The notes: generated by a model from the letters alone, not told the origin. A stretch of DNA of 64,000 nt from an uncultured Veillonellaceae bacterium (GCA_900315575.1 OMZR01000001.1:16071-80070); one strand, 5' to 3'; positions 7,997 to 64,000 are shown, counted from the stretch's first letter. Program-made: numbers and translations.

Positions 7997-8018
7997 AAAT
8001 ATTTGGACATACTGAAAT

Positions 8019-8054: not shown

Positions 8055-8241
8055 TGAGTGAACAACAAATTCTCCATTGCGCAGGTGTTTGTTAATCGTC
8101 TCGTGGTATCCTATGGCAAGCTAAAGAAACCGCGAACAAGAAAGGAAATCGACATGGCAGACGGACACATATTTTCAAGAAAAAGCATTGCTCGTCGGTG
8201 AGCGAACTGTGTGAGAAGTGTGGCGCAATAGGGAGGAGCTT

Positions 8242-11565: not shown

Positions 11566-11584
11566 TGCAACGGACAAATTCCAG

Positions 11585-12061: not shown

Positions 12062-12195
12062 TCAAGCCTCTATCCGAATTCTCGCACGCACCAAAATAAA
12101 ATATCATCGCACGCCCAAAACAGCGTTCCTCCGTATTGAAGGATGCTGTTTTTTGTGTGTGGGGTCTGTCACTTCTTGTTATAGAGAGTGGGGAT

Positions 12196-13839: not shown

Positions 13840-14056
13840 CGCGCGTCAAGCCTTCCTTTCTGCAGAGGATTCGTTCTGTCTCTGATTATATCTTGCCTGT
13901 CGAAAGATTGCCAGAGCCATCGTCATGGACTTTTTCAAATTTTTTTCATGAAAGCAGGAACCTTCCTACAAGAAAGCGAATTATACCCAAAAGGATAGGA
14001 AGTATGTAGAATACCATGGGAAGTATTCAGATAGAGTGGAGAAGGGAAGCGGTTTC

Positions 14057-16094: not shown

Positions 16095-17597
16095 ATGAAA
16101 CCGTTCAACCCAAGAGGCGCAGCATGCTTGTTGCTGGCATTTTTCCTCCTCCTGCTTTCTGCCTGTGCTTCTGATGTTTCAGACACGGGGGAGAGCAGCG
16201 GGGCGGCGACATCTGACGCGTCATCCTCCTCGACATCCGCACTTGCGTCTGGCATCGAAGCGCTTTCGAATGCTGACAGTACGCATTATGCGGTCTTTGT
16301 CGCCTATCCGCTCGACGGGCGCGAGTATGTCTACCAGTCATCGCCGATGCGGTCGGCGAGCATGATCAAGGTATTTTTGCTCGCCACGGCGATGGAGCGC
16401 GTGCAGCAGGGGACGCTGTCGCTCGACCAGACGCTGACGCTCCACAGTTCGGACAAGGTCGGCGGCGCGGGCGTCATCGCGGGGTATGCCTCGGGCACGG
16501 AGCTGCCGCTCGATACCGTCCTGCGCTTCATGATTACGGAGAGCGACAACACGGCGACGAACATGGTCATCGACCTTCTCGGCATGGACGCCATCAACGA
16601 ATACATCCAGCGGAACGGCTACCATGACACGATTCTCCAGCGCAAGATGATGGATTTTGACGCCGTCGCGGCGGGCCGTGAAAACTATACGTCGGCGGCC
16701 GACCTCGGCCATTTCTTCGTGAAGCTCTACAACCGCAGCTGCGTCACGCCGGAGCTCGACGATGTCATGCTCGGCTACCTCGCAGGGCAGACGGACACGG
16801 AGTGCTTCCCGGCCGCGCTGCCGGGCGTCATGATTGCGCATAAGACCGGCGAGCTCGGCGGCCTTTACGATGACGGCGGCATCATCTATCAGGAGGGCAA
16901 GCCGTTCATCATGGTTGGCATGACGGAGAACTATTCGAGCCGCAGCACGGCCATTGAGACGCTGCGCCAGATGGCGCGCGTCGCGGCAGAAAATGCTTCT
17001 CCTGCCTCGACCGAGTCTCTGGAGGATTTCGTCGTGGACAAGCCGATTGAATGGTCGGCAGAGCGCGAAAATCTGACGCGGGAATATGCCGAGCTGCACT
17101 ACGGCAAGGACACGGCGACCATCGTGCCGCAGGCCGTCGTGCTCCACTGGACGGCGGGCCCGACCTGGGAATCGGCCTACTATACGTTTTATCCGGCCGC
17201 GCGAGCGGACGGCACAGTGAACGTGTCGTCGCAGTTCCTTGTTGACCGCGACGGGACGGTGTACCGCCTGCTGCCCGAGACGACGCTCGCTCGTCATGTC
17301 ATCGGCTACAACTGGTGCGCCATCGGCGTGGAAAACGTCGGCGGCGAGGGCGGCGCGGAAGACCTGACAGACGCGCAGGTGGCGGCGAATGTCCGCCTGA
17401 TCCGCGCCCTGCATGAGAAGTATCCGACCATCCAGTATGTCTTCGGCCACTACCAGCAGACGGCAGCCCGCGCGAGCGGCCTCTATATCGAGCAGGTCGA
17501 GGGCTACCATTCCATAAAAAGCGACCCCGGACCGAGCTTCATGAGCGCGGTACGAGGCCAGCTTTCGGGTGAAGGGCTGATCTTCTATCCTGAGTGA
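16095..17597 (+). CDS. fusion of class-A beta-lactamase-like serine hydrolase and N-acetylmuramoyl-L-alanine amidase (Amidase_2/PGRP-like), exported
   Basis: Lipobox-like LLLLSAC. SxxK (SASMIK), SDN (ESDNTATN), KTG (HKTGEL). The C-terminal half has VVLHWTAGPTWESAYYTF ... HVIGYNWCAIGVENVG ... FGHYQ. Confidence 0.75.
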   Translation: MKPFNPRGAACLLLAFFLLLLSACASDVSDTGESSGAATSDASSSSTSALASGIEALSNADSTHYAVFVAYPLDGREYVYQSSPMRSASMIKVFLLATAMERVQQGTLSLDQTLTLHSSDKVGGAGVIAGYASGTELPLDTVLRFMITESDNTATNMVIDLLGMDAINEYIQRNGYHDTILQRKMMDFDAVAAGRENYTSAADLGHFFVKLYNRSCVTPELDDVMLGYLAGQTDTECFPAALPGVMIAHKTGELGGLYDDGGIIYQEGKPFIMVGMTENYSSRSTAIETLRQMARVAAENASPASTESLEDFVVDKPIEWSAERENLTREYAELHYGKDTATIVPQAVVLHWTAGPTWESAYYTFYPAARADGTVNVSSQFLVDRDGTVYRLLPETTLARHVIGYNWCAIGVENVGGEGGAEDLTDAQVAANVRLIRALHEKYPTIQYVFGHYQQTAARASGLYIEQVEGYHSIKSDPGPSFMSAVRGQLSGEGLIFYPE

Positions 17598-26472: not shown

Positions 26473-26587
26473 TTGACTTGTCAAGAGGTCAAGAGAGAGG
26501 CCGCAAGGAAACATGGACACTTCGGAAACTCGATCGGACACCTCCTTGGCACAACGGTTTTTCGTGATTCCAAAGGAGGAAATCATC

Positions 26588-27913
26588 ATGAAAAAGACAC
26601 TCGTTTCTGCACTCACCACGGCGCTCGTTATCGGCGCTGCTTCCACGACGTTCGCTGCTTCGAACCCGTTCTCCGATGTCCCGGCAGACCACTGGGCATA
26701 TGATGCTGTCAGCCAGCTCGCTGCCGACGGCGTCATCACGGGCTATGGCGACAGCACGTTCCAGGGCAACCGCAACATCACGCGTTATGAGATGGCGCAG
26801 ATGATTGCAAAGGCCATGGCAAAGACGGATGTTTCCGCTGCCGACAAGGCCATGATCGACAAGCTCGCTGCTGAGTTCTCCGATGAGCTCAACAACCTCG
26901 GCGTCCGCGTCTCGAACCTCGAGAAGCACTCCGATATGGTGAAGTGGAACGGCAAGCTGCGTTACACGTATGACAGCAAGCGCGTCGAGAAGGAAGACAG
27001 CAACGCGAAGGACAAGACGAACAAGGATGAGCTCCTGTTCCGCCTCGAGCCGACGGCGGAGGTCAATGACCACTGGAATGTCAAGGCACGTGTCGATGCC
27101 AAGACGTACATGGACAGCGACAGCGGTCAGAACGACAGCGACGAAGTCAAGCTGAAGAGAGCGTATGCAGAAGGCAACTACAAGAACTTCTCCACACAGC
27201 TCGGCAAATTCGGCCTCTACACGCCGGAGCAGGGCCTCGTCTTCGATGATGAGATGAGCGGCGCGAAAGTCACGTTCGGCAAGGATCTCAAGGCAAGTCT
27301 CTATGCTGGCCGCATCGACCTCTCTGACTCCGCGACGGCGAAGAACATGGCGAACGGCAGCACGCATTATGATGACACGGCCAACATCCAGGGCATCACG
27401 CTCCAGTATGACAACCCGGCGGCCAGCAAGCTCTCCGGCGGCGCTGCATACTATCATCTGAATTCCGACAGCTTCAAGGGCTCGACGGACAACAAGATCA
27501 ACAGCGGCATCCAGTATGCCGATGGCGATAACAAGGAAGACGAGGCCAATATCTGGTCCGTCAACGCTGCTTACAACTTCGATGGCACGAGCAAGCTCTC
27601 CGCTGCGTATGCGAACAACACGAGCGCAGATAACCTGAACTACAGCTGGCAGGCCCTCTACAACTACAAGGGCGCACAGGCTGAGAACAAGGGCACGTGG
27701 GGCGCTTACGCCGGCTACCGTTACCTCGGCACGAACGCTTCCCTCTTCGGCACGCAGGACGCTCAGATCGTCGGTGCCAAAGGCTGGGAGGTCGGCGCGA
27801 ACTACACGCCGTTCAAGAACGTCGTTGCTACGGCGAAGTACTTCAACGGCAAAGGCATCGAGTCCGATCGCGACGCAGAGACGCTCTGGGGCCGTGTCGA
27901 GTTCCTCTTCTGA
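26588..27913 (+). CDS. SLH-domain outer-membrane protein (Negativicutes porin/OM-anchor type, Mep45-like)
   Basis: Signal MKKTLVSALTTALVIGAASTTFA. SLH motif NPFSDVPADHWAYDAVSQLAADGVITGYGDSTFQGNRNITRYEMAQMIAKA. A coiled-coil, then a beta-rich C-terminus ending in F. Confidence 0.9.
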   Translation: MKKTLVSALTTALVIGAASTTFAASNPFSDVPADHWAYDAVSQLAADGVITGYGDSTFQGNRNITRYEMAQMIAKAMAKTDVSAADKAMIDKLAAEFSDELNNLGVRVSNLEKHSDMVKWNGKLRYTYDSKRVEKEDSNAKDKTNKDELLFRLEPTAEVNDHWNVKARVDAKTYMDSDSGQNDSDEVKLKRAYAEGNYKNFSTQLGKFGLYTPEQGLVFDDEMSGAKVTFGKDLKASLYAGRIDLSDSATAKNMANGSTHYDDTANIQGITLQYDNPAASKLSGGAAYYHLNSDSFKGSTDNKINSGIQYADGDNKEDEANIWSVNAAYNFDGTSKLSAAYANNTSADNLNYSWQALYNYKGAQAENKGTWGAYAGYRYLGTNASLFGTQDAQIVGAKGWEVGANYTPFKNVVATAKYFNGKGIESDRDAETLWGRVEFLF

Positions 27914-40620: not shown

Positions 40621-40677
40621 ATCTCTTTTTTGCTCTGCATGATATAATGAGAAAAAGAGTTGCGAGGAGGGAGTTGC

Positions 40678-41571
40678 ATGAAAAAGGTTCCACACTACGA
40701 CCCGACAAATGACCTCGTGTTCAAGTTCGTTTTCGGCCGTGAGGAACGGAAGAACGTCACGCTCAGGTTCATCAACGACATGACAGGGCGCGAAGGAAGC
40801 AATGCCTTTGTTGACCTTGATTTCCGGAACTCCGAACTCGTGCCGGACAAGGAAGATGACAAGCTCGGGCGACTGGATGTCTTCGGTATCCTTGACGACA
40901 GGACGCGCGTCGATGTCGAGATGCAGGTCTTCAATCATCGGAACATGGAAAAGCGCTCGCTTTTCTATTGGGCGCACATGTACCTGCATTTTGATGCGCT
41001 GAAAAGCGGACAGGGCTATCGACAGATCAAGCCGGCCATTGCCATCAACATCTTGCGGTTCCCATTCCTACCGACGGAGGCGCCGTTCTCGCAGTATGGT
41101 ATCTATAACATCAAGAATCAGCATAAGCTGACGGATGACCTCGAACTTGATTTTCTCGAAATCCCGAAATACAGGAACAAGCCTGTGAAAGAGATGAACC
41201 GCGTCGAGCGTTGGCTCGCATATTTTGCGAACCGGCTGGACGATGATGGGAAGGAGGAACTCGCCATGTCGAATCCGGAGATTGCTGAGGCGATGGAGGC
41301 CTCGGATCGCTTCATGATGGACGACAAAGCTTATTTCGAGTACCTGCAGCGCGAATCCGCCATCTGGGATTATAACAACGACATGGCGGGGAGCCGTGAA
41401 GAGGGCCGCGAAGAAGGCCGCGAGGAGGGACGCGAAGAGGGCGAGCGTTTGAAGACGGAGAGCTTCGTCCGTAATTTGCTTGCAGCAAAGATGTCGTATG
41501 AAGAAATTGCACGTTTGGCAGAGACGACAATCGAAAATGTCGAACGGATTGCAAAGGCGTCAGGACAGTAA
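40678..41571 (+). CDS. Rpn family recombination-promoting nuclease/putative transposase (YhgA-like PD-(D/E)xK)
   Basis: DLVFKFVFGREERKNVTLRFINDM ... DDKLGRLDVFGILDDRTRVDVEMQV ... KRSLFYWAHMY. Contains an (EEGR)x4 tandem repeat. Confidence 0.85.
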   Translation: MKKVPHYDPTNDLVFKFVFGREERKNVTLRFINDMTGREGSNAFVDLDFRNSELVPDKEDDKLGRLDVFGILDDRTRVDVEMQVFNHRNMEKRSLFYWAHMYLHFDALKSGQGYRQIKPAIAINILRFPFLPTEAPFSQYGIYNIKNQHKLTDDLELDFLEIPKYRNKPVKEMNRVERWLAYFANRLDDDGKEELAMSNPEIAEAMEASDRFMMDDKAYFEYLQRESAIWDYNNDMAGSREEGREEGREEGREEGERLKTESFVRNLLAAKMSYEEIARLAETTIENVERIAKASGQ

Positions 41572-43477: not shown

Positions 43478-43552
43478 TGGTGACACCTATGGGATTCGAA
43501 CCCATGAACCCGGCGTGAGAGGCCGGTGTCTTAACCGCTTGACGAAGGTGCC
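43478..43552 (-). tRNA. tRNA-Glu (anticodon CUC)
   Basis: Reverse complement GGCACCTTCGTCAAGCGGTTAAGACACCGGCCTCTCACGCCGGGTTCATGGGTTCGAATCCCATAGGTGTCACCA. It folds as a cloverleaf with anticodon stem CCGGC/GCCGG, loop CT-CTC-AC, T-arm ATGGG/CCCAT, and an encoded CCA. Confidence 0.9.
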
Positions 43553-43554
43553 GA

Positions 43555-43629
43555 TGGTGACGCCTATGAGATTCGAACTCATGAACCCGGCGTGAGAGGC
43601 CGGTGTCTTAACCGCTTGACGAAGGCGCC
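43555..43629 (-). tRNA. tRNA-Glu (anticodon CUC), second tandem copy
   Basis: Reverse complement GGCGCCTTCGTCAAGCGGTTAAGACACCGGCCTCTCACGCCGGGTTCATGAGTTCGAATCTCATAGGCGTCACCA. It differs from copy 1 only by compensated acceptor and T-stem changes. Confidence 0.9.
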
Positions 43630-53231: not shown

Positions 53232-53393
53232 TGTTTGTGGACGGTCTGCACCTCACAGCATGTACTTCGATAGAACAAGGACGTTATGTATACATAAAAA
53301 GACATATTGACAAGAAAACCCACTTTTGTTAGAATATGCCATAGAAAAAAGAGCATAAAGAATATCCTTTACAGAAAAAAGAAAGTCTCTATC

Positions 53394-53549
53394 ATGGAAA
53401 AGAAAAACTTTACGGCCGCAAGCGTCCTTGTCGCCATGCTCATTGCCTCTGGTCATTTCATCCCAGCTACAGTCCGCGAGGGTGCCGGCACGGGCCAGCA
53501 GATGACGGAGACGGATCCCTGCCTGGCCAATACGCCCGAGCAGGCATGA
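53394..53549 (+). CDS. possible small exported peptide (51 aa)
   Basis: MEKKNFTAASVLVAMLIASGHFIP.. has a hydrophobic N-terminus. It is followed by the hairpin CCCTC-TTTT-GAGGG plus a T-run (53594..53616). Support is weak. Confidence 0.3.
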   Translation: MEKKNFTAASVLVAMLIASGHFIPATVREGAGTGQQMTETDPCLANTPEQA

Positions 53550-53627
53550 CGGCAGCCATGGGAGGAGCCATCTGACGAACGTGCCATCTTTTGTCCCTCT
53601 TTTGAGGGGCTTTTTTCATATTGCCTC

Positions 53628-53656
53628 TTGACATGTTCTATGGTCTCTGGTAAATT
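53628..53656 (+). promoter_or_regulatory. sigma-70-type promoter upstream of the ten-gene secreted-protein operon
   Basis: TTGACA (53628..53633), 17 nt, TAAATT (53651..53656). Confidence 0.5.
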
Positions 53657-53773
53657 TAATGGATATAGGAGACAGATGTCCTTTCAAACAAGAATTCCAC
53701 TGTTTTTGTGACATTCTTTGAAAAAACGACATCAAAAGGTTAGGAAGAAACAAAAACGAAGGGGATCATCATC

Positions 53774-54565
53774 ATGGAAGAAAAAATGAAGAAACGGATG
53801 TTTTCTGGAATGCTCGTAGCGGCCGTTGCCGTTGCGGGGCAGTTCGTCCAGCCGCAGGCGGGGATGCCTGCGGTCGGCATGCAGCAGGCGGAAGCCTTCA
53901 GCCTCGGCGGTGCGCTGGGCAGCGTCCTCAATGCGGTGTTCCAGCTCGACATGGGCAGCATGCAGAGCCATCAGCAGAGCCTGATGAAGAATCTCGCCTG
54001 GGCGGCACAGCTCGAAGCCGTTTCGGCGGAGCGCTGGGGTCATGTCGCGAATGTCGATACGGCGCGCGCAGCCGCTGCTTCGAACAGCGCGAAGGCGTTC
54101 CTCCAGAACGGCGACTATTCCCTGCCGAAATTCAAGGCATTCCATTCGTCGTTCGCATCGAACATCGCGCTTTCCGATGGCGACAAGACGCAGATGACGA
54201 CGTCGCTCGACAACCTGATGACGGACAAGGACAAGCTGACGACGGAGCAGAACACGCAGTACGTCACGGAGGCAAAGAAAGCGCGCCGCATGGCGGCAAC
54301 GTATAACGCGCTGGCGGCCAAAGATGCGGCCTACATCATCCATGGCGCCGTGAAGGCATTCGCGAGCGGCAATCTCGGCGACCAGCTTTCGGCTGTGCAG
54401 AGCATGGCTGATGTTGCGAAGGAAGCTCAGTCCTTCCTGAAGCTTCAGCGGGACGTTTCGAAGGAGCGCGCCAATCTGACGCAGAAAGCCGAAAAAGCCA
54501 TGAACGTCAAGGATCCGAGCGACAAGGATGCGAAAGCATACGCAAAAAGCCTCGGCATGGAATAA
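53774..54565 (+). CDS. secreted, predicted alpha-helical protein, paralog 1 (unknown family)
   Basis: Signal MKKRMFSGMLVAAVAVAGQ. Shares the blocks LAWAAQLEAVSAERWG, ASNSAKAFLQNGDYSL, KDKLTTEQNTQYVTEAKKARRMAATYNALA, SKERANLTQKAEKAMNVKDP and a C-terminal SLGME with the next gene. Confidence 0.75.
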   Translation: MEEKMKKRMFSGMLVAAVAVAGQFVQPQAGMPAVGMQQAEAFSLGGALGSVLNAVFQLDMGSMQSHQQSLMKNLAWAAQLEAVSAERWGHVANVDTARAAAASNSAKAFLQNGDYSLPKFKAFHSSFASNIALSDGDKTQMTTSLDNLMTDKDKLTTEQNTQYVTEAKKARRMAATYNALAAKDAAYIIHGAVKAFASGNLGDQLSAVQSMADVAKEAQSFLKLQRDVSKERANLTQKAEKAMNVKDPSDKDAKAYAKSLGME

Positions 54566-54603
54566 GATTTCGGACGAAAGAAAAAAGAAGATCGGTTCAA
54601 ATA

Positions 54604-54645
54604 GGAGAAACGTCTTGACATCTGGACGTTTCTCCTTTAAAATTT
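54604..54645 (+). terminator. intrinsic terminator/attenuator hairpin between the two paralogs
   Basis: GGAGAAACGTC (54604..54614) / GACGTTTCTCC (54625..54635), perfect 11 bp, followed by TTTAAAATTT. Confidence 0.6.
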
Positions 54646-54689
54646 ACAGTGAAAAAAGTTCTTTTTGAGTGAAGATAGGAGTCTTGGTC

Positions 54690-55541
54690 ATGAAGAAGAA
54701 AAACATGGTTGTTTCCGGCGTCCTCGCAGCTGTTGTTGCAGTTTCCGGGCAGTTCGTCCAGGTTGGCCAGGGAAATGGCATCCACTTCGGCACGCAGAGC
54801 GCGGCGGCCTTCGGCCTCAAGATGCCGAAGATCAAGACGGGCATTTCGTCCGTGGATGACCAGGCAAACAAGGCTGCCAAGCAGACGGCGGAAAACGCTG
54901 TGAAAAAGGCGTTCAACGTTGACATCTCGAGCATGGGCAACCGCAAGCAGGATATGCTGAAGCACCTCGCATGGGCAGCACGCCTCGAAGCTGTCTCGGC
55001 CGATCGCTGGGGCAAGGTCGCAGGCACGGATACGGCAGAAGCACAGGCCGCTTCGAACAGCGCGCAGGCATTCCTCGCGAACGGGGACTTCTCTCTTTCG
55101 ACGTTCAAGAACTTCAGCTCGAACTACCAGTCGAAGATGAAGCTTTCCGATAATCAGAAACAGGCCTATGCGGCGCTGGACAAGGCACTCGTTTCGGAGA
55201 AAGACAAGCTGACGACGGAGCAGAACAAGACATATGTGACGGATGCAAAGAAAGCCCGCAAGATGGCTGCCGTCTACAATGCGCTGGCGGTGCGTGATGC
55301 CGGCCTGCTGCTCTCGGATACGGCAAAAGCGCTCGCGCACAAGTCGGATCTCGGCAGCCAGCTCGATGAAGTGCAGGAGCTTGCTTCGTTCGCCAATGAG
55401 GCAAAATCGTTTGTCGATGCGCAGAAGAAGATTTCGAAGGAGCGTGCCGATCTGACGAAGAAAGCCGAGAAGGCCATGAATGTCAAGGAGCCGACGGAGC
55501 AGGAGAACAAGGATTTCGCCAAGACGCTCGGCATGGAATAA
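54690..55541 (+). CDS. secreted, predicted alpha-helical protein, paralog 2 (unknown family)
   Basis: Signal MKKKNMVVSGVLAAVVAVSGQ. The shared blocks are listed under paralog 1. RBS AGGAG lies 8 nt upstream of the ATG at 54690. Confidence 0.75.
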   Translation: MKKKNMVVSGVLAAVVAVSGQFVQVGQGNGIHFGTQSAAAFGLKMPKIKTGISSVDDQANKAAKQTAENAVKKAFNVDISSMGNRKQDMLKHLAWAARLEAVSADRWGKVAGTDTAEAQAASNSAQAFLANGDFSLSTFKNFSSNYQSKMKLSDNQKQAYAALDKALVSEKDKLTTEQNKTYVTDAKKARKMAAVYNALAVRDAGLLLSDTAKALAHKSDLGSQLDEVQELASFANEAKSFVDAQKKISKERADLTKKAEKAMNVKEPTEQENKDFAKTLGME

Positions 55542-55562
55542 TGCTTTGGAGGGGCCAGAACG

Positions 55563-56726
55563 ATGAAACGAAATCTTTGGAAACGGTGTGCGATGGCCCT
55601 TGCCTGCTGCGTGCTCGCCGCGTTCCCGCTGACGGCCGATGCCGCGCAGAAGGAACTCCCGACAGTCAACTGGGCACCGAATGTCTTCACGGTTGGCGAG
55701 ACGTCGGATGAGAGCCTGCTCTCCGTGCCAGGCACGACGGGCAAGGTCGCAAGCGCGATTACGGAGCGCCTCGAAACGCTTTCAAAAGCAGGGAAGCTGC
55801 CATTCGCACTCAAGACCGACAGTGCGGCGGGCGATCTGCAGGCGGTGTCGGATGACACGGCGATCTCGATCCAGCCGTTCTCCGTGCTCGATGCCTCGTT
55901 TGACAGCCAGATGACGGTCAACGGCAAGAACGTCTATCATGCGCTGATCCTCAGTGCGCTCGACGTCTCCGTCGTCAGCCGCTATGAAGAGGATGGCAAG
56001 GAAGAATATCGCATGCTCGGCATGGTGCCGCTCCACGTCGCGGGCGAGATCACACAGATGACGCCGATCACGGCACAGCAGAAAGCGGACAAGTATGCAG
56101 AAATCACCCAGGCGGCCATCGCCTCGGATCTCGATTTCAGCAAGAATCCAAAACTCTTCAAGAACCTTGAAGAGCGCATGCTGAGTCCGGACGAGGATAC
56201 GTGGCAGGTCTCTGATGTCGCCATGAGCTCGAAGAAGGCGCAGACCGTCTATGGCAGCCAGCAGGACAAGCTGCGCCGCCTTGTCGCCGCCTTTGCGGCC
56301 GCGAGCTTCCAGCAGGCGACGTCGAAGACCGTCCTGCCGTCGCCGATTGAGACGGGCCATTATGCAAAGAGCGTCGAAGCCAATATGAACGCCTTCACGA
56401 TCAGCAGCGCGCTCGGCAAGAAAACGCTGACGATCCCGCAGGCAAAGCACCAGATCGCGCTCGACATCTGCGGCGTGAACAGCGGCGTCATGGACGAAGA
56501 TAAGTCCGATGTCCTGCGCCATGTCATGTACAAGGCATGGCTCCGTGCACGTCCGGCACAGGATGCGCCGGGCTCATCGTCGGAAAAGACGCTCGACGCC
56601 AACAAGGTCGTGCGCGAGTCGAAGACGGAGAACGTACAGTTCAGCAGCAATCCTATCGACATTTATTCTGCGCTCTACATCGACCTCTCGACCCGTATCG
56701 GGTCGCAGGTGAAAGCGAAGAAATAA
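55563..56726 (+). CDS. secreted protein, unknown family
   Basis: Signal MKRNLWKRCAMALACCVLAAFPLTADA. RBS GGAGGGG. 21-nt gap to the upstream gene. Confidence 0.7.
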   Translation: MKRNLWKRCAMALACCVLAAFPLTADAAQKELPTVNWAPNVFTVGETSDESLLSVPGTTGKVASAITERLETLSKAGKLPFALKTDSAAGDLQAVSDDTAISIQPFSVLDASFDSQMTVNGKNVYHALILSALDVSVVSRYEEDGKEEYRMLGMVPLHVAGEITQMTPITAQQKADKYAEITQAAIASDLDFSKNPKLFKNLEERMLSPDEDTWQVSDVAMSSKKAQTVYGSQQDKLRRLVAAFAAASFQQATSKTVLPSPIETGHYAKSVEANMNAFTISSALGKKTLTIPQAKHQIALDICGVNSGVMDEDKSDVLRHVMYKAWLRARPAQDAPGSSSEKTLDANKVVRESKTENVQFSSNPIDIYSALYIDLSTRIGSQVKAKK

Positions 56727-56739
56727 AGGGGGCAGTCCT

Positions 56740-57894
56740 ATGAAATCATTTGCACGGCCGTTTGCGGCCCTTGCCGCCTGCGTGCTGCTCAGTGCAGCAC
56801 CGGCACTCTGCTCGGCAGAGATCGTCGAGGGACAGGCCCCCATCATCGACGGCAACGTGGATCAGGCCCGCTATGCCGCGCGCCAGGATGCCATGCGCAC
56901 CTACGTCGAAGGAAAGGTCGGCGTCCACGTCCAGAGCTCGACGGAAGTCGATATGGGCATGGTCGTCTCCGACCGTATCCTCACGAACTCGAACGGCTAC
57001 GTACAGCTGAAACGTATCGTCGACGAGAAGCAGGCGGGCGGCATCTATATCGTCCATCTCGATCTCGATGCCGATACGCACCTCATGGAGACGGCGGTCG
57101 CTGATGTCCAGTCGCGCCTCGAGGCACTCGAAGCCAACTCGTCGCGTTCTGGCGTTTCCGTTGCCGTTGGTGGCGTGGATGAGAATGGACGGTTTGAATC
57201 CGTGCCAAAGATCAACAACTACGTTCGCGGAATGATGGAAGACAAGGGCTTCTATGCCGTGACGAATGATGGCGTGCTCCAGTACATGGCAACGCACCGC
57301 GACCTTGACGACCCGAATGCGCTCGTCGAGATCCGCCAGCTCGCCCGCCAGTATCGTGAGGCGGAGAATTCGCTTCTGCGCGGTACGCTCTCGACGCAGA
57401 GCATTACGCGGCAGGGCGGCTCGTATGTTGCCGTCGTCCATGCCTCATTCGAGCTCATCGGCCTCGACAACAACGACTCGAACAGCTTTGCGAACTACTT
57501 CACGGCCTCAGCCTCGTCGCCCGTCGGCGCGAAGCAGAAAGCCCAGGAAATGGCTGTGCGGGAAGCTGTGAATTCCCTCGGACAGAAAGCGCTCAAGACG
57601 GATCAGCGCGAGAACCGTGGCGGCGTTCACCACATCAAGACGATGCTGGCCTTCACGAATCTCGGCGATCCGGCTGGACGCGCAAAGCAGATCCTTGCGG
57701 CGCTCTCGAACTTGGGCATCCATGTCATCCGCTCCGGCCTCACGAGCAACGGCGGTTTCCAGGCCTTCATTGATGCGACACAGTATCAGGACACGGGCGC
57801 ACTGCAGGAAGCGATCACCCAGAGCCTCGGCTGCACGTCGATGATGGATGAGGGCGCTTCGATCGGCAGCTCGAAGATGCAGTTCACATTCTGA
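56740..57894 (+). CDS. secreted three-module protein, FlgT-like architecture (LPP20/FlgT_N-like N-domain, CsgG/LpoB-like middle, alpha/beta C-domain)
   Basis: Signal MKSFARPFAALAACVLLSAAPALCSA. N-module GNVDQARYAARQDAMRTYVEGKVGVHVQSSTEV...NGYVQLKRIVDEKQAGGIYIVHLDLDAD. Middle VSVAVGGVDENGRF..NYVRGMMEDKGFYAV...YVAVVHASFELIG. The gene call is strong; the family call is by motif pattern only. Confidence 0.55.
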   Translation: MKSFARPFAALAACVLLSAAPALCSAEIVEGQAPIIDGNVDQARYAARQDAMRTYVEGKVGVHVQSSTEVDMGMVVSDRILTNSNGYVQLKRIVDEKQAGGIYIVHLDLDADTHLMETAVADVQSRLEALEANSSRSGVSVAVGGVDENGRFESVPKINNYVRGMMEDKGFYAVTNDGVLQYMATHRDLDDPNALVEIRQLARQYREAENSLLRGTLSTQSITRQGGSYVAVVHASFELIGLDNNDSNSFANYFTASASSPVGAKQKAQEMAVREAVNSLGQKALKTDQRENRGGVHHIKTMLAFTNLGDPAGRAKQILAALSNLGIHVIRSGLTSNGGFQAFIDATQYQDTGALQEAITQSLGCTSMMDEGASIGSSKMQFTF

Positions 57895-57913
57895 GGCCGT
57901 TGGAGGGATGGAT

Positions 57914-58780
57914 ATGAAGAAATGGAAATGCGCCCTTGCGGCGCTCGTGCTCGGCGCGGGCAGCTTCCTGTCCCTGCCGGCACCGCCCGCCGAAGCGGCC
58001 GCTTCGCTCTTCACCGTCTGCGGCGAAGCTGCGGATGGCAAGAAGGACACAGCTGTGCGCGACGCGCAGAAGAAAGCCGTGCGCAAAGTCCTCAGCCAGC
58101 TCATGACGGAAGACAACCCGCAGTTTGCCTCCCTGCTCGCAAACTACCGCTCGTATGCGGCCGAGCCGCAGGTCTTCAACAAGAAATCGCAAGGCGGCAA
58201 GCTCCTGCTCTTTTCCAAAGTGCCGGTCGATGTCGATGCGATCAAGACCGCGATCAGCAACGCCAATGAGGCAAAGCAGGAGCGCCACAGCGACCAGACA
58301 GCCTATTTCCTCGTGCGTGTCACGGGCCTGCCTGCGAATGGCGACGATGCGAAAGGCCAGGCACAGGTCGTGAAGACGTACAATGACACGTTCGCCCGTC
58401 TCGGCTTTGAGACCGGCACGCTCGATGCCGTTTTCAACGCGCTCGCGCCGTATCGCGAGACGCCTTACGATGCGTTCTACCAGCAGATGGTGCAGCGCGT
58501 CGAGACGGATCCCGATTTCATGGCCGTCACGATGGCCGTTGTCGGCGAGATTGCCGTCACGGGGAAATCCCATGACGCAAACGGTTTCACACGCGAAGTC
58601 AGCGTCCGCGTCGATGCGTATGACGTTCTCGCGAAGAAACGGATTGCTTCCTACAGCGACGTCTACGAGCTCTGGAACAAAGACCCGAAGCTCGCCGACC
58701 AGATGCTGCTCGACAAAGCGGCCGTCAACTCCGCTCGCGCCATCGCCGACCAGACATCGACGTATTGGCAGAAGCGGTGA
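57914..58780 (+). CDS. secreted two-module protein (LPP20/FlgT_N-like plus CsgG/LpoB-like pattern)
   Basis: Signal MKKWKCALAALVLGAGSFLSLPAPPAEA. GKKDTAVRDAQKKAVRKVLSQL...GGKLLLFSKVPVDVD. Then AYFLVRVTGL..FARLGFET...MAVVGEIAV...REVSVRVDAYDVLAKKRIAS. Confidence 0.5.
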   Translation: MKKWKCALAALVLGAGSFLSLPAPPAEAAASLFTVCGEAADGKKDTAVRDAQKKAVRKVLSQLMTEDNPQFASLLANYRSYAAEPQVFNKKSQGGKLLLFSKVPVDVDAIKTAISNANEAKQERHSDQTAYFLVRVTGLPANGDDAKGQAQVVKTYNDTFARLGFETGTLDAVFNALAPYRETPYDAFYQQMVQRVETDPDFMAVTMAVVGEIAVTGKSHDANGFTREVSVRVDAYDVLAKKRIASYSDVYELWNKDPKLADQMLLDKAAVNSARAIADQTSTYWQKR

Positions 58781-58899
58781 ACCCGATAAAATTTCGGCAG
58801 GAATGCTAGACATATTCCGTCTGGCTACCTATAATATAAGAGTGAGAAAAGTCTCTACCGCTCCTGCTCGCAGGAGAAAAAACAAGGAGGTTGTATCCT

Positions 58900-59859
58900 A
58901 TGAAGTGTGTTTCCCGCATGATGACGGCGCTGCTTGCAGCTGCGCTGCTCATCGTCATGACGGCAGCGAGCGCGTTCGCTGCAGATTCCGGCGTTGACTG
59001 GTCGGAACAGAAGATCGTGGTGCAGGGCATGGGCGTCGCTCCGACGAATGCCCGCACGGCATCGCAGGCATACATGCTTGCACGCCGCGCAGCCATGGTG
59101 GATGGCTATCGCCAGATCGCTGAGTCCGTCAAGGGCGTCAATGTCGATTCGGAATCGACGGTCGAGAACATGATGGTCACGAGCGATGTCACGAAGACGA
59201 AGGTCTCGGCTCTCATCAAGGGCGCGCGCGTCATCTCCGAGCAGAAGACGGCAGATGGCGGCGTCATCCTGACGATGGAAGTTCCTCTCTTCGGTGTTTC
59301 GGATTCCCTCGCAAGCGCTGTCTTTGAGAAGCCTGCCCAGCAGGAGAGCTTCCCGCAGCCGGTTGCGAATGTCGCTCCGAGCATGCCGACGACGGTCGAT
59401 GTCCATGTCCAGGTTGGCACGGGCGCAACGACGCCGAGCACGCCGTCCGCCACGGTGCCGAGCACGACGCCGGCTGCGACGGTCCCGGCAACGACGGGTT
59501 CTTCGGCAGCACCGGCTCCGACGGGCAAGGCCATCGGCGGCTACACGGGCCTCATCGTGGATTGCCGCGGCCTCGGCCTCAAGCCGGCTATGAGCCCGGT
59601 CATCAAGAATGCGAATGGCCAGGCCATCTATGGCTACAAGAACCTCAACTATGACAAGGTCGTCTCCGGCGGCATGGCTGGCTACACGACGGATATGGGC
59701 CGCGCATCCCGCGCTGGTTCGAACCCGCTCGTCGTCAAGGCTGTGAGCCTCGATGGCGGTGCAAACCCGGTCCTCTCGGTTGCTGACGCAAACCGCGTCC
59801 TCATCGAGAACGGTGCTTCGGGCTTCCTCGATGCGACGAATGTTGTCTTCGTCCGCTGA
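58900..59859 (+). CDS. LPP20-family-like secreted protein with Thr/Pro/Ala-rich linker and a conserved C-terminal domain
   Basis: Signal MKCVSRMMTALLAAALLIVMTAASAFA. QGMGVAPTNARTASQAYMLARRAAMVDGYRQIAESVKGVNVDSESTVENMMVTSD...GARVISEQKTADGGVILTMEVPL. Linker TTPSTPSATVPSTTPAATVPATTGSSAAPAPTG. Confidence 0.6.
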   Translation: MKCVSRMMTALLAAALLIVMTAASAFAADSGVDWSEQKIVVQGMGVAPTNARTASQAYMLARRAAMVDGYRQIAESVKGVNVDSESTVENMMVTSDVTKTKVSALIKGARVISEQKTADGGVILTMEVPLFGVSDSLASAVFEKPAQQESFPQPVANVAPSMPTTVDVHVQVGTGATTPSTPSATVPSTTPAATVPATTGSSAAPAPTGKAIGGYTGLIVDCRGLGLKPAMSPVIKNANGQAIYGYKNLNYDKVVSGGMAGYTTDMGRASRAGSNPLVVKAVSLDGGANPVLSVADANRVLIENGASGFLDATNVVFVR

Positions 59860-59954
59860 GGCAGTGACAGAATTCCAGAGGAAACAGGAAACCTCGCCTG
59901 CGGGCGGGGCTTTCCTTTTATCTGGACATCTTTTTTAGAAATGGGGAATTTTCA

Positions 59955-61076
59955 ATGAAGAAAGGATTCGGAAGAAGTTTGGTTGCAGCGTTCGCGCTGC
60001 TGCTGGCCGCGCATACGGGCTTTGCGCAGGCCGTTGTCGTGGATGGCACCGGCAGCGATCGCCAGAGCGCGATCAAGGACGCTTCGCGCAATGCGGTCGA
60101 GCAGGTCGTCGGCGCGCTTGTCGATTCGAAGACGCTCGTGGAGAATGCGCAGGTGCAGCTCGACGAGATTTACACGAAGTCACAGGGCTTCGTGAAAGAT
60201 GTACAGGTTCTCAGCGAGACGAGCCAGGGCGGGCTCGTGCAGGTGCACGCCCGGATCGATGTGGATACGAGCCCGAATGCCGGCCTCATGAGCAATCTGC
60301 AGATGATCATGGCGCTGAATGATCCGCGCATTGCGGTCGTCATCCTCGACATGAACCGCAATGGCGCGATCGAAGGGCACAATTTCACGGCGGAGTCGGC
60401 GCTCGGCGACAAGCTCCTGAGCCTCGGCTTCCATCATGTCGTCGATCCGCAGGTCGTGGCGAGCCGCAGCGACGCACAGCTGCTCGCGAACATTTATAAC
60501 GGCAGCACGCAGCCGTCGGCCATCGGCAGCAGCCTGGGCGCGGACTACCTCGTCGTCGGCCGCGTGCAGAAGAATGCGCAGACGATCCAGCTGCCGGATG
60601 GCCATGGCGGCTACGAGTCGACGCTGCTGCATTCGGCGAATGCCATCCTTTCGGTGAAAGTCATCCGCTTTGATACGGGCGACATCGTCGGCACGTTCCA
60701 GACTTCAGCGAAGGGTGTCGAGAACAGCGACGATATGGCAGAGCAGAAAGCCGCAGAGACGGCGGCGGCGCAGGCGGCGACGAAACTGGAGGAAAAGTTC
60801 CGTCATTTCAGCAGCGAGGCGACGGGGAACTCGGTCGAGCTCGATGTCTTCACGAGTGACGCGGCAGCCGTGCAGCAGCTCGTGACGGACCTGCGCGGCA
60901 TTTCGTCCGTGCGCAATGTCTATCTGCGCGAGCAGGGCAGCGGCAAGGCAGTCCTTTCCGTCGAGACGAGCGAAAGCCCGTCCGGCCTCATCGCGCGCCT
61001 GCAGAATCAGACGAAGCTCGGCCTGTTCGTTGCGGGCATGACAGGCACGACGGCGAAGATTTCGGTTTCGCGCTGA
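59955..61076 (+). CDS. secreted three-module protein, FlgT-like architecture (373 aa)
   Basis: Signal MKKGFGRSLVAAFALLLAAHTGFAQA. N-module GTGSDRQSAIKDASRNAVEQVVGALVDSKTLVENAQVQ..GFVKDVQVLSETSQGGLVQVHARIDVD. Middle PRIAVVILDMN..LGDKLLSLGFHHVV..LGADYLVVGRV..ANAILSVKVIRFDTGDIVG. C-module VELDVF..VQQLVTDLRGISSVRNVYL. Confidence 0.6.
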   Translation: MKKGFGRSLVAAFALLLAAHTGFAQAVVVDGTGSDRQSAIKDASRNAVEQVVGALVDSKTLVENAQVQLDEIYTKSQGFVKDVQVLSETSQGGLVQVHARIDVDTSPNAGLMSNLQMIMALNDPRIAVVILDMNRNGAIEGHNFTAESALGDKLLSLGFHHVVDPQVVASRSDAQLLANIYNGSTQPSAIGSSLGADYLVVGRVQKNAQTIQLPDGHGGYESTLLHSANAILSVKVIRFDTGDIVGTFQTSAKGVENSDDMAEQKAAETAAAQAATKLEEKFRHFSSEATGNSVELDVFTSDAAAVQQLVTDLRGISSVRNVYLREQGSGKAVLSVETSESPSGLIARLQNQTKLGLFVAGMTGTTAKISVSR

Positions 61077-61124
61077 TCTGCGGGACCCTTTGGAAAATCC
61101 AGCAGGGAAAGGAATCCTGAAACC

Positions 61125-61964
61125 ATGAAGGAAAAACAGATGTTTTGCGGATGGTGGCTGCTCCTCGGTCTGCTCGCAGCTGTGCTCGTGCTGCCAGCGC
61201 GAGGGGCGGAGGCGGCCGGCCTCTTCCAGAAAGCGGCGGGCAGCACGCTCATCTATCTCGGCGAAGTGCAGAGTTATGGTGATGCGGAGCTCAAGGATGT
61301 CTATTTCAACACGTTTGCCGACAAGCTCGCGGCCGCACTCCAGGCGCAGGGACTCGGCTACCAGGGCAATGCCGACCTCACGAACGAGGGCGGACGCCAT
61401 GCGGCGACCGGCGCGGATGGCGAAGCGGCCGACCTCTCGGAGATCCACATGGACGCCATCGTGCACGGCCATCAGTATGACCGGGGCAATACGGCTGCAA
61501 AGCTCGCGCATTATGCTGACGCCGTCATGGGGCGCGGCTATTTTCATGATGAGGAGCGTCTGAAAGCCTGGCGTTCGCAGCCGGATCTGACGTATCCGCT
61601 CGGCCCGGACAAGCAGCGCCTCGCGAAAGCCATCGCAGAGCGCCATGGCGCGAAATACCTGCTCTTCGTCAACATCAAGGATGTCGACGTGCGGCTGAAG
61701 CACGGTATCTTTGCGACGCATACGGAGCGCGAGACGAAGGGCAAGAAGATGACGTCGTCCCTCGATTACTATCTCGTGAATGCCGAGACGGGCCGCGTCT
61801 ATGAGCACCATTTCGAAGACAAGAAGACGGCACAGATGGTGAATTTCGGCCTCGGCCAGACCGGCAAGGGCATGGCCGTCGACACGCTGCTCGGCGAAGT
61901 GCTCGAGGCGCAGGCCAATGCGCTCGCAAAAGACCTTGCAAAGCACATCCCATCCGCGAAATAA
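61125..61964 (+). CDS. secreted protein with CsgG/LpoB-like sequence pattern
   Basis: Signal ..WWLLLGLLAAVLVLPARGAEA. TLIYLGEVQSYG..FADKLAAALQAQGLGY..HGAKYLLFVNIKDVDV..MTSSLDYYLVNAETGRVYE. Confidence 0.5.
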   Translation: MKEKQMFCGWWLLLGLLAAVLVLPARGAEAAGLFQKAAGSTLIYLGEVQSYGDAELKDVYFNTFADKLAAALQAQGLGYQGNADLTNEGGRHAATGADGEAADLSEIHMDAIVHGHQYDRGNTAAKLAHYADAVMGRGYFHDEERLKAWRSQPDLTYPLGPDKQRLAKAIAERHGAKYLLFVNIKDVDVRLKHGIFATHTERETKGKKMTSSLDYYLVNAETGRVYEHHFEDKKTAQMVNFGLGQTGKGMAVDTLLGEVLEAQANALAKDLAKHIPSAK

Positions 61965-62009
61965 CGAGAGTCCGGGGAAGGGATTCAAAGGAAAGGATAT
62001 GGAAGTTTG

Positions 62010-63314
62010 ATGAAACAGCAGATACCTCATGTTTGCCGTGGCATCGCGCTGGGCGCGGCACTCGCGTTTGGCACGATGGCGGCCGCGCCGCTCGCGGCGC
62101 TTGCCCATGGCAACATCTGGATGGATGAGAACGTGCCCGAGAATGAGCGGATGACGAAGTACAAGGACATCGTCGTGTTCCCGATTCATGACCAGACATC
62201 GGCTGACGGGCGCCCCGACCAGTACCAGGCGTGGAACCAGGAGTTCGCGAAGCGCATCAACAAGCGCATCAAGAGGACGAATTTTCATTGGTTCGAGGAT
62301 CCAAGCGATGCCAAGGCGGCGGACAAGAAGAAAGAGAAGCTCATGATCACGCGCGAGAATTCGTCGTACAAGGATCTTTTGCAGCATTTTCCGAGCGAGG
62401 AAGCGCGCGGCAAGGCCGTCTATGACAAGACGGGCGCAGAGGGCTATCTCCTGCCGCACCTGCGCTATTACAACGAGCGCGTCGATGTCTCGCCTGCGAC
62501 GTGGACGAATGTCAAGATGGAGAGCTACTACGACGTCGAGAATGGCCCGAATGGCGACCAGAACAAGCTCGGCTACCAGAGCTGGTACGCTTCGCACTTG
62601 ATTCCAGAGCATCGGCGCACGCTCGAGATGGTGGATTTCGATTTCGTCCTTTATGATGCCTACACGCAGAAAAAGGCCATGACGCTCATCGACTATTATC
62701 GCTGTTACGATGTCGACAAGACGCATGCGTTCGAGCAGATCGCAAAGAATTTTACGGGCGACTGGAACCGCCTGAAGGACGATCATGAAAACGATGTCCC
62801 TGCCGGGGCGCCGACGCTCGGTTTCCGCAGCCTCGACCTGCCGTGGAATGCCGCGCAGGATGAGTTCGCCATCAAGACGATCTATTATGCGTACAAGGAT
62901 GAGGCCGGCGACACGCTGAAGGGCGTGAAAGTCGACTATCAGCCCAATGGCGGCCGCTACTACGTGACGGGCGCGATCAAAAGCTATGACCGCGGTGAAC
63001 GCTGGACGCCGCCTTCGGCCTCGACGTATACGAGCCTTGACCGGACGGAAGAATTCACATGGTACGACCGGAATGGCAACGCACATAAGGGCAAACGCAA
63101 ATACTATAAGACGAACATCAATGACAACTTTGGCTACAATAGCTTCTACTATGGCGCGACGGCCGATCTGAGTCTCGTCGACAGCCGCACGGGCGAGACG
63201 GTGCTCCATCGCATTCTCTCGGCCGAGGATCCCGACCGCTATGCCAATGCCCTGCGCCAGATCTTTGGCGACTTCTATCGCGAGGTCGACAAGACCATCG
63301 GCGTGAAAGCCTGA
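62010..63314 (+). CDS. secreted protein, unknown family (Trp/Tyr-rich)
   Basis: Signal MKQQIPHVCRGIALGAALAFGTMAAAPLAALAHG. YKDIVVFPIHDQT..GAEGYLLPHLRYYNE..LEMVDFDFVLYDAYTQKKAM. Confidence 0.55.
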   Translation: MKQQIPHVCRGIALGAALAFGTMAAAPLAALAHGNIWMDENVPENERMTKYKDIVVFPIHDQTSADGRPDQYQAWNQEFAKRINKRIKRTNFHWFEDPSDAKAADKKKEKLMITRENSSYKDLLQHFPSEEARGKAVYDKTGAEGYLLPHLRYYNERVDVSPATWTNVKMESYYDVENGPNGDQNKLGYQSWYASHLIPEHRRTLEMVDFDFVLYDAYTQKKAMTLIDYYRCYDVDKTHAFEQIAKNFTGDWNRLKDDHENDVPAGAPTLGFRSLDLPWNAAQDEFAIKTIYYAYKDEAGDTLKGVKVDYQPNGGRYYVTGAIKSYDRGERWTPPSASTYTSLDRTEEFTWYDRNGNAHKGKRKYYKTNINDNFGYNSFYYGATADLSLVDSRTGETVLHRILSAEDPDRYANALRQIFGDFYREVDKTIGVKA

Positions 63315-63354
63315 TATACGGACGAGAATGAAAGGAAAAAAGGAGGGAATCGCG

Positions 63355-63984
63355 ATGAAGAGGAGCAGCTTCGCCATCCTGCGGGCCGCTGCCATGCTGC
63401 TCGCGCTCCTGCTGCTGCCGCTCCCCGTTTCGGCGGCTGGCACGCCGCGCCTCATGGTGGCCGGCTTCTCGAGCCGTGTGGAAAAGACGGACATCACGAT
63501 GAACGATATTGATGTGCCCATCGCGCAGATCCTCGGAGGCGCGCGTGACGTGTTCAAGACGGAGCTCGCGGGGAGCCCCGCGTACACGCTCGTCGATTTC
63601 GACGGCGAAGTCACGCGCATGCGCCTCGATGAGGCTGCCGTCCTGCAGAGCCTCGGTGCAGGCACCGTCACGCCAGAGCTCGCCGCCTCAGCGGACTACA
63701 TCGTCTATGGCTATCTCGCGACGCTCAGCAATGTGAAAGCGCAGAGCGGCGCTCTCGTCTTTTCCGGAAAAGACCGGACGGTCTATGCCGAGCTGAGCCT
63801 GCGCGTCATTGATGCGCACACGGGCACGGTCGTCTTCGTCACGAAAGCCGACTCGCGCCGCAAGTCCGAACTCAAGTACCATGCCATCGTAGAGCGCGAC
63901 GACCTCGGCGTCGAGGATGCCGTCCGTCAGGCGGTCGAAGACGCTGCCGTCAACCTCGCGGCCAATGTCCGGGCGGCCATTTGA
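63355..63984 (+). CDS. CsgG/LpoB-fold-like secreted protein
   Basis: Signal MKRSSFAILRAAAMLLALLLLPLPVSAAG. PRLMVAGFSSRV...VFKTELAGSPAYTLVDFDGEVTRMRLDEAAVLQSLG...ASADYIVYGYLATL...VYAELSLRVIDAHTGTVVFV follows the CsgG-family consensus layout. RBS AAGGAGGGA upstream of the ATG at 63355. Confidence 0.6.
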   Translation: MKRSSFAILRAAAMLLALLLLPLPVSAAGTPRLMVAGFSSRVEKTDITMNDIDVPIAQILGGARDVFKTELAGSPAYTLVDFDGEVTRMRLDEAAVLQSLGAGTVTPELAASADYIVYGYLATLSNVKAQSGALVFSGKDRTVYAELSLRVIDAHTGTVVFVTKADSRRKSELKYHAIVERDDLGVEDAVRQAVEDAAVNLAANVRAAI

Positions 63985-64000
63985 ACGCGCAAAAGAATGC

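Follow-up and report, generated by a model that had tools for sequence, protein, structure and literature searches.

A cluster of ten genes for exported proteins

The window analysed here, a 64,000-nucleotide (nt) stretch of DNA from an uncultured Veillonellaceae bacterium (GCA_900315575.1 OMZR01000001.1:16071-80070), ends in a cluster of ten consecutive plus-strand genes (53774-63984), which we number g1 to g10 and whose products are all predicted to be exported; several of them resemble proteins of flagellar disks and outer-membrane rings. An earlier note, made from the sequence alone, had described these genes, their spacing of 13-124 nt and a base composition like that of the surroundings, and all three observations held. 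The open reading frames (ORFs) are separated, from g1 to g10, by 124, 21, 13, 19, 119, 95, 48, 45 and 40 nt, each of the ten starts is preceded by a purine-rich run resembling a ribosome-binding site, and the GC content of the cluster is 0.57-0.615 versus about 0.60 for most of the window. The ten genes are real. Their products correspond to the NCBI records WP_294144379-88, assigned to "uncultured Selenomonas sp.", and near-identical copies of them occur in pig and other gut metagenomes. The NCBI product names are confined to hypothetical protein, "LPP20 family lipoprotein" and "FlgT N-terminal domain-containing". A 988-aa minus-strand frame (60705-63671), antisense to g7-g10, was rejected as a GC-rich antisense artefact, because its third-position GC is 0.63 versus 0.76 in the sense genes and because it is the sense genes that have homologues.

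The N-termini of all ten products carry two to four K/R residues ahead of a hydrophobic h-region (Kyte-Doolittle maxima, over 11 residues, of 1.9-3.1 within the first 22 residues), as in Sec-type signal peptides. No later segment resembling a membrane span was found in any of the ten (maximum 19-residue hydropathy ≤1.3), and Pfam and NCBIfam searches revealed no ATPase, transporter or cytoplasmic family among them, in agreement with what had been proposed from the sequence alone. If about one quarter of the proteins of a diderm are exported (a rough assumption), ten exported products in a row would arise by chance with a probability of the order of 1e-6.

The NCBI assignments, together with a 466-aa protein (window 26513-27913) whose N-terminal part carries an SLH domain of the OmpM/Mep45 type, the outer-membrane tether of diderm Firmicutes, identify the host as a diderm Firmicute that belongs to the Selenomonadaceae; the earlier placement as a diderm Firmicute was thus correct. 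The host may also be motile. A methyl-accepting chemotaxis protein (MCP) chemoreceptor with dCache_1, HAMP and MCPsignal domains is encoded at window 14036-16030, suggesting that the organism is chemotactic and possibly motile.

FlgP- and FlgT-like proteins

Four products, g4 to g7, carry an SHS2-type N-terminal domain of the LPP20/FlgT_N kind, as had been recognised by inspection. g4 (56740-57894; 384 aa) and g7 (59955-61076; 373 aa) have a FlgT/LipL46-like architecture, in which an SHS2-type FlgT_N domain is followed by a middle domain, CsgG-like in g7, and a C-terminal alpha/beta domain; reciprocal profile matches identify the two as full-length paralogues. Both lie over the Pfam gathering cutoff of 28.8 bits for FlgT_N (PF16548), g4 with 37.4 bits (3.6e-9) and g7 with 29.0 bits (1.6e-6). 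Homologues of g7 carry both Pfam FlgT_N and CsgG, and the g10 profile matches the g7 middle domain. As g4 and the g10 family gave a negative hhalign result, the middle domain of g4 is assigned only via full-length homology of the protein to g7. FlgT_C was not detected in g4 or g7, and at threshold their middle domains match CsgG-like profiles, not FlgT_M. The NCBIfam LipL46 model (NF033164; cutoff 400 bits) aligned with g7 over residues 34-327 (E 2e-14, 53.1 bits) and scored 15.4 bits with g4. The shorter g5 (57914-58780; 288 aa) is FlgT-like with two domains, an SHS2-like N-domain and a CsgG-like middle domain, and is without the C-terminal one; hhalign relates it to the g7 family at 96.4% (E 1e-9) over 262 columns that take in both domains.

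g6 (58900-59859; 319 aa) combines a FlgP-type SHS2 domain, a Pro/Thr/Ala-rich linker and a C-terminal domain related to D2 of Tp0624. It exceeds the Pfam gathering cutoff for LPP20 (PF02169; 33.3 bits, 6.9e-8, versus 25.9), and a profile of its homologues matched Campylobacter jejuni FlgP (9hmf_C) at E 5.2e-18, near-gapless over FlgP residues 70-159, together with several Vibrio-type FlgP chains (8z5n_2, 5.4e-7). The C-terminal domain matched Tp0624 (5jir_B) at a profile E of 2.9e-5 over chain residues 125-260, which correspond to D2. g6 is thus a clear FlgP homologue, fused to what appears to be a Tp0624-D2-like domain, a match that needs structural confirmation. The isolated C-terminal domains of g4, g6 and g7 gave no Pfam match.

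The profile of the g7 family also reached FlgP in the PDB (9HMF chain C, 5.8e-5), with CsgG at 0.15. This alignment is gapless over FlgP 92-164, a stretch that takes in the part linking the SHS2 helix to the strand after it. In the periplasmic-scaffold model to which 9HMF belongs, the ring-forming beta-hairpin of FlgP is an insert after the SHS2 helix that makes the continuous sheet of the ring, and an insertion at this place correlates with ring formation across the family (PMC12222027). The alignments of g6 and g7 to FlgP run through the region of this hairpin insert without gaps (g6 nearly so).

We also observed that members of the g4 family end in an invariant Phe preceded by alternating hydrophobic residues (..MQFTF, ..IYLKF; window 57880-57894). 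This C-terminus resembles the C-terminal signal of outer-membrane beta-barrels, though the domain looks alpha/beta.

CsgG- and FlgT_M-like proteins

A CsgG/LpoB/FlgT_M-like module had been read into six products, those of the genes starting at 56740, 57914, 59955, 61125, 62010 and 63355; this largely stands, with g4 included only by way of g7. The single-domain protein g8 (61125-61964; 279 aa) matched Pfam FlgT_M at 1.4e-4, under gathering, and 11 of the 16 members of its family do so (best 7e-6); hhalign against the g10 family gave 46%, and a search of the PDB with the g8-family profile gave no match.

g9 (62010-63314; 434 aa) is without a sequence family. Its AlphaFold 2 (AF2) model, with a predicted local distance difference test (pLDDT) value of 83.7, consists of two alpha/beta domains in tandem with five long strands each, both of the CsgG/PelC/FlgT_M-like type by Foldseek. 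The matches were the Vibrio LPHT ring (8z5n, 2.8e-5), FlgT (3w1e, 2.7e-4) and PelC (probability 1.0), as well as CsgG, GNA1162 and HpaA; among these are ring formers by entry title, namely the LPHT ring, the PelC dodecamer and the CsgG channel. The beta-hairpins of g9, as judged from the model and the strand sequences, are very long (16-17 residues), polar and rich in charged residues. The g9 counterpart is split into two separate genes in a related low-GC cluster (L039).

The last gene of the cluster, g10 (63355-63984; 209 aa), encodes a single CsgG/LpoB-like domain with no long linker. It scored 18.7 bits (1.1e-3) with Pfam CsgG (PF03783; gathering 20.8) and 13.1 bits with LpoB (PF13036; cutoff 22.3); 20 of 23 family members match the former (best 5.3e-23) and 17 of 23 the latter (best 5e-13), and the family profile reached CsgG in the PDB at 7e-3. 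An SNVK segment is common to the g10 family and CsgG, where it lies at the start of the TM1 hairpin region. By sequence comparison, the TM1-equivalent of g10 has about 4-6 residues fewer and is mostly polar, and the TM2-equivalent has about 11 fewer and is charged (ADSRRKSELKYH); in g10', a g10-like paralogue found in related loci, the counterparts of the CsgG membrane hairpins are polar as well. These features, together with the charged g9 hairpins and the missing lipobox described below, make an outer-membrane channel of the CsgG type unlikely.

Helical proteins g1 and g2, and g3

g1 (53774-54565; 263 aa) and g2 (54690-55541; 283 aa) are predicted exported orphan helical-bundle proteins and paralogues at 51% identity; g1 belongs to no Pfam or NCBIfam family, and only 26 relatives of the pair were found among 1.84 billion representatives. 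The AF2 model of g2 (pLDDT 79.5) is a long helical bundle with helices of up to 44 residues, in which residues 1-55 are disordered. It gave no Foldseek match in the PDB below E 0.1; ClyA/AhlC-like rows were disregarded at a probability of ≤0.28. The family alignment shows a conserved GQFVQ directly after the hydrophobic core (window 53774-53900 and 54690-54810) and an invariant AEA at g2 residues 38-40, about 20 residues past that core. This N-terminus could be an unusually long signal peptide or could contain a second processing or recognition motif; cleavage would lie at AVS|GQ or at AEA|G. An LTXXQ-like "LTTEQ" was dropped as a candidate motif, not being conserved across the family.

The exported g3 (55563-56726; 387 aa) has a fold without assignment: profile searches gave no Pfam or NCBIfam family and no PDB relative, and hhalign was negative against the g9, g7 and g8 families and weak (53%) against the g10 family, over the N-terminal 110 columns.

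Near-absence of a lipid anchor

FlgP, Lpp20, CsgG, LpoB, PelC and LipL46 are all lipoproteins. In contrast, the lipobox pattern was hit only four times among about 170 homologues of g3-g10; it was found in 0/40 ORFs of the g10 family and in 0/6 of the g6 family, and g6 carries an AFA|A site of the signal peptidase I (SPase I) type. Canonical lipoboxes are present elsewhere in the host, in MetQ (52333) and in a 598-aa protein (48634). The near-absence of the lipobox pattern is a consistent difference from all known relatives.

Two modules and their distribution

We scanned one genome per species for 185,579 species with the g9 profile, via three g9 peptide patterns, so that the number of loci is a lower bound. 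At least 27 loci contain a module corresponding to g7-g10 (module B), all of them in Selenomonadaceae: Mitsuokella multacida, M. jalaludinii, the Selenomonas ruminantium group, S. ruminis, and metagenome-assembled genomes (MAGs) from rumen and gut. Common to the loci are a g7-like lead gene, usually a further g10-like paralogue that matches CsgG/LpoB strongly (g10'), and then g8, g10 and g9, at 43-83% identity to the window and in an order that is kept across genera. M. multacida, which has been described as non-motile (PMC13518439), has five intact module B genes in the complete genome of strain DSM 20544 (L009), and g6 homologues occur in genomes labelled M. jalaludinii (L016).

The remaining genes form module A, which consists of a helical protein, g3, g4 and g5, usually followed by g6; the window has g1-g5, with the helical gene duplicated as g1 and g2. 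g3 is confined to such A cassettes. The Mitsuokella type genomes lack module A, whereas others have it, with 0, 1 or 2 copies per genome, and most genomes with module B are without any g1/g2 homologue. The cassettes fall into three types, A1, A2 and A3, with 52-88% identity within a type across genomes and 22-43% between types; all four cassette genes co-vary by type. The three types diverged anciently, and co-evolution as four-gene sets argues for specific contacts within each cassette.

In some strains of the window's species, an island and a second cassette, of type A2, are inserted at the g5/g6 junction (window ~58799; L043 16122-20852, L049 7213-11539). The island comprises five small minus-strand genes, one of them DUF4160, and the cassette encodes proteins of 273, 385, 388 and 289 aa; the g6-g10 stretch of these strains is 99.5% identical to the window. 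Allelic replacement of g1-g5 between strains was considered and ruled out, as looking up metQ revealed an insertion between g5 and g6.

The neighbours of module B are always housekeeping genes, in three settings unrelated to one another: metNIQ in the window, znuA on one side and ctsR-mcsB-clpC on the other in Mitsuokella-like contigs, and pgk-tpi-gpmI upstream in S. ruminis. No flagellar Pfam family was found in any annotated 20-kb neighbourhood (about 10 kb on each side). Two related operons were identified in Selenomonadaceae-like genomes, both with a divergent XRE-type regulator upstream. One (L039, 10001-20563) has 12 genes, a g7-like lead followed by 11 small exported paralogues, with g9 split and an M23 peptidase at the end; in the other (L041, 10001-20852), g7-like and CsgG-like genes stand together with those for dockerin, DUF805, Ricin-B/SH3 and LPP20 proteins.

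Transcription units and the end of the cluster

The ten genes had been described as one operon behind one canonical promoter. The promoter-like site exists ahead of g1 (TTGACA-17-TAAATT, 53628..53656; 10/12, with a TG extension), preceded by a terminator-like hairpin (53593-53610), but sites of equal or better quality lie inside the cluster: TTGACA-17-TAAAAT before g2 (54615-54643, plus strand; 11/12) and TAGACA-17-TATAAT before g6 (58807..58835, plus strand; 11/12). The former overlaps the loop and 3' arm of a 13-bp hairpin with a T-rich tail that follows g1 (54603-54636, plus strand), and a terminator-like G+C-rich hairpin with a T-run (59892-59909, plus strand) lies between g6 and g7, at the boundary of modules A and B. 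Because of these internal promoter-like sites and terminator-like hairpins, a single operon is unlikely and several transcription units are probable; we predict the units g1, g2-g5, g6 and g7-g10.

The cluster ends at g10. A metagenome contig (L002), identical to window 53355-64000 and reaching further to the right, carries a terminator with a 12-bp stem and seven T (contig positions 10647-10677) that begins 17 nt past the g10 stop, just outside the window, and unrelated genes follow, which encode a coiled-coil protein anchored in the membrane, a hexapeptide transferase and a PilZ protein; recQ lies there on the opposite strand. The suggestion that the operon might continue beyond the window is thereby answered in the negative. 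The genes downstream of the terminator do not accompany the cluster in other genomes; the PilZ and hexapeptide-transferase genes, considered as members of the system, were ruled out on both grounds. Rfam revealed no regulatory RNA in the window, where its matches were just two tRNAs.

Just upstream of the cluster lies a 51-aa ORF (53394-53549) with an N-terminus resembling a signal peptide, which is called as a gene in some metagenome assemblies. A strong promoter-like site belongs to it (53307-53335; 11/12 with TG), and the terminator-like hairpin at 53593-53610 stands behind it. A by-eye likeness to the N-terminus of g1/g2 was dismissed: the ORF gave no match to the g1/g2 hidden Markov model (HMM) and belongs to no family.

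A possible periplasmic scaffold and its alternatives

The reading we favour, with a probability of roughly 0.4, is a self-assembling, ATP-independent ring or disk scaffold in the periplasm that is independent of the flagellum. The proteins would be exported by Sec, cleaved by signal peptidase I, and would then assemble without ATP into hetero-oligomeric periplasmic rings or disks, as do their relatives FlgP, FlgT, PelC and CsgG. Module B would form the core, to which every A cassette would contribute a co-evolved layer of its own, including the helical protein; the assembly might serve envelope architecture at the interface between outer membrane and peptidoglycan, or might encircle another envelope machine. 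That the products work together is suggested by the conserved order of module B and by the co-variation of module A by cassette. The folds concerned form rings elsewhere: the FlgP basal disk, the FlgT H-ring, the PelC dodecamer and the CsgG nonamer. Among the three functions offered by the earlier note, curli-like export is disfavoured, a flagellar-motor scaffold is disfavoured for the conserved core though it may still apply, and a novel kind of lattice or ring in the envelope is the best reading of the three.

Several points weigh against this scaffold. The well-studied relatives are all outer-membrane lipoproteins, whereas the cluster proteins are without an evident anchor, and no peptidoglycan-binding or membrane domain was detected in them; g1/g2 and g3 are without assignable fold relatives. 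Ring formation would be an extrapolation from distant relatives, and it is the assembly, its location, its anchoring and its purpose alike that we infer. Clustering could instead reflect the expansion of paralogues among independent periplasmic proteins. Finally, the best sequence matches are flagellar, and the host encodes a chemoreceptor and may be motile.

This last point is also where an accessory structure of the flagellar motor has its strength: periplasmic disks or an H-ring-like collar, comparable to the FlgP disks of Campylobacter or the FlgT/FlgP/FlgO rings of Vibrio. The closest solved relatives are flagellar (FlgP for g6, the LPHT ring and FlgT for the g9 model, FlgT_N for g4 and g7), an MCP chemoreceptor is encoded in the window, and many Selenomonadaceae are flagellated. 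We nevertheless consider it unlikely, because module B is intact in the non-motile M. multacida (and in M. jalaludinii) and because the annotated loci contain no flagellar gene up to about 10 kb away in either direction. The cluster proteins also lack the lipid anchor of FlgP, and variation of the A cassettes between 0 and 2 copies and among three types in close relatives would be unusual for a motor part.

Distinctly unlikely is the view that there is no common assembly, the genes encoding independent exported paralogues (surface or periplasmic binding proteins, or antigens) that were duplicated in tandem and diversified by host or phage. It accounts well for the extensive paralogy, for three deeply diverged cassette types with copy-number variation, and for the resemblance of g7 to LipL46 and of the g9 model to HpaA, both reported as surface proteins or adhesins. 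It accounts poorly for a module B whose order and composition are kept across genera at 43-83% identity and for cassette members that co-vary as sets, both of which suggest functional coupling; nor is a route across the outer membrane evident.

Regulators or scaffolds of periplasmic cell-wall enzymes, LpoB- or FlgT-like, in a lineage without LpoA/LpoB, seem improbable. The LpoB matches in the g10 family, the M23 peptidase that ends the related operon L039, and the relationship of the g6 C-terminal domain to Tp0624, a protein with an OmpA-like domain that has been discussed with regard to peptidoglycan, all point that way. No cell-wall enzyme is found in or beside the cluster of the window or the Mitsuokella and S. 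ruminis loci, however; LpoB is a lipid-anchored monomer with a long linker, neither feature being present here, and the many paralogues would be hard to account for.

A curli-like (type VIII-like) exporter, in which g10, g9 and g7 would form an outer-membrane channel secreting g1 and g2 as surface subunits, is highly improbable: the CsgG matches of the g10 family including SNVK, a paralogous g1/g2 pair reminiscent of CsgA/CsgB with conserved N-terminal motifs, and a hairpin after g1 that could raise subunit expression stand against missing lipoboxes, equivalents of the CsgG hairpins that in g10 are charged as well as shorter, and in g10' and g9 polar, no match to CsgE, CsgF, CsgA or CsgB, long helical bundles instead of amyloid repeats, and the lack of a g1/g2 homologue in most module B genomes.

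Returning to the ring or disk scaffold, we put forward only tentatively, and as something that may well prove otherwise, its fullest form: an undescribed supramolecular structure of the Selenomonadaceae, independent of the flagellum, located in the periplasm or under the outer membrane, and built from non-lipidated SHS2 folds of the FlgP/FlgT type and CsgG/PelC folds, with a core of four to five proteins and the A1-A3 cassettes. To our knowledge, diderm Firmicutes are without Lpp, Pal and Tol, and little is known of organisers of their periplasm beyond OmpM. What we describe is a family-specific conserved set that re-uses disk folds (FlgP, FlgT) and ring folds (PelC, CsgG) without lipid anchors and that is also present in a genus described as non-motile. 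If the proteins assemble, ring modules would be in use outside motility and secretion, which bears on the evolution of flagellar disks: their building blocks would lead an independent life as, or would have begun as, an envelope scaffold in diderm Firmicutes. The system is approachable by experiment, M. multacida and S. ruminantium being cultivable and module B comprising just four or five genes, and the A cassettes, with 0-2 copies and three types, constitute a natural experiment on an accessory layer.

Other features of the window

A low-GC island at window 8000-14000 (0.46-0.51 versus about 0.60) was probably acquired horizontally; it encodes a 1115-aa fused restriction-modification protein with N6_Mtase, Eco57I and Methylase_S domains (8218-11565) and, on the minus strand, an AAA-ATPase_like/PDDEXK_9 protein (12196-13839). 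Further along, a lipoprotein at 16095-17597 joins a class A beta-lactamase-like domain (Beta-lactamase2) to an N-acetylmuramoyl-L-alanine amidase domain (Amidase_2), a combination that looks unusual. A gene resembling PD-(D/E)XK family transposases (PDDEXK_2; 40660-41571) lies in a local GC dip (0.53), with two tRNA genes (43481-43629) near it.

Comparison with known systems

In the literature searched we found no description of this cluster and no link of the LPP20, FlgT or CsgG families to Negativicutes, and searches on LipL46 function and on tomography of Selenomonas motors likewise yielded nothing on it. FlgP, of the LPP20 family, is the nearest relative of the g6 N-domain, with which it aligns near-gaplessly (profile E 5.2e-18), and g4, g5 and g7 share the same SHS2-type N-domain. 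Unlike FlgP, the cluster proteins carry no lipobox, have no flagellar genes as neighbours and are present in a genus described as non-motile; conversely, FlgP is without the Pro/Thr-rich linker and the extra Tp0624-D2-like domain of g6. Tp0624 of Treponema pallidum (5JIR) resembles the g6 C-terminal domain in D2, a previously uncharacterised domain of an exported envelope protein, whereas its D1 and its OmpA-like D3 are missing from g6.

FlgT, of the Vibrio H-ring (3W1E, 8Z5N), shares with g4 and g7 the succession of FlgT_N, a CsgG/TolB-N-like middle domain and a third domain, and with g5 the first two; g8 matches FlgT_M, and the g9 model matches FlgT. The third domain of g4 and g7, in which FlgT_C was not detected, looks like a different alpha/beta domain, however, several paralogues are present per locus, and no flagellar, motX/motY or flgO/flgP neighbours are found. 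LipL46 of Leptospira (NF033164) has the same two-domain N+M architecture over g7 residues 34-327 (E 2e-14), but it is a lipoprotein, and at 53.1 versus 400 bits g7 is not its equivalog.

CsgG (4UV3, 6L7A) shares its periplasmic alpha/beta fold and the motifs SNVK and LRVvD..TG with g10, the g7 middle domain and both g9 domains. In contrast to CsgG, no lipoprotein is found here, the TM1/TM2-equivalent hairpins are shorter or charged, and g10 scores under Pfam gathering; nor was any match to the CsgE, CsgF, CsgA and CsgB families found in the cluster with Pfam and NCBIfam. LpoB differs from g10 in its lipid anchor and its long disordered N-terminal linker. PelC, from the dodecamer of the Pel exopolysaccharide exporter (5T11, 9H80), gave the best per-domain match to the g9 model (Foldseek probability 1.0, TM-score to target up to 0.69) and presents this fold as a ring of soluble domains beneath the outer membrane; PelC, however, carries a lipid anchor and is a product of the pel operon, as is PelB, whereas g9 has no lipobox and no pel or polysaccharide genes lie in the cluster. 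The building blocks are thus known, and what is new is their combination: proteins without a lipid anchor, in a non-flagellar context, arranged as two modules with interchangeable cassettes.

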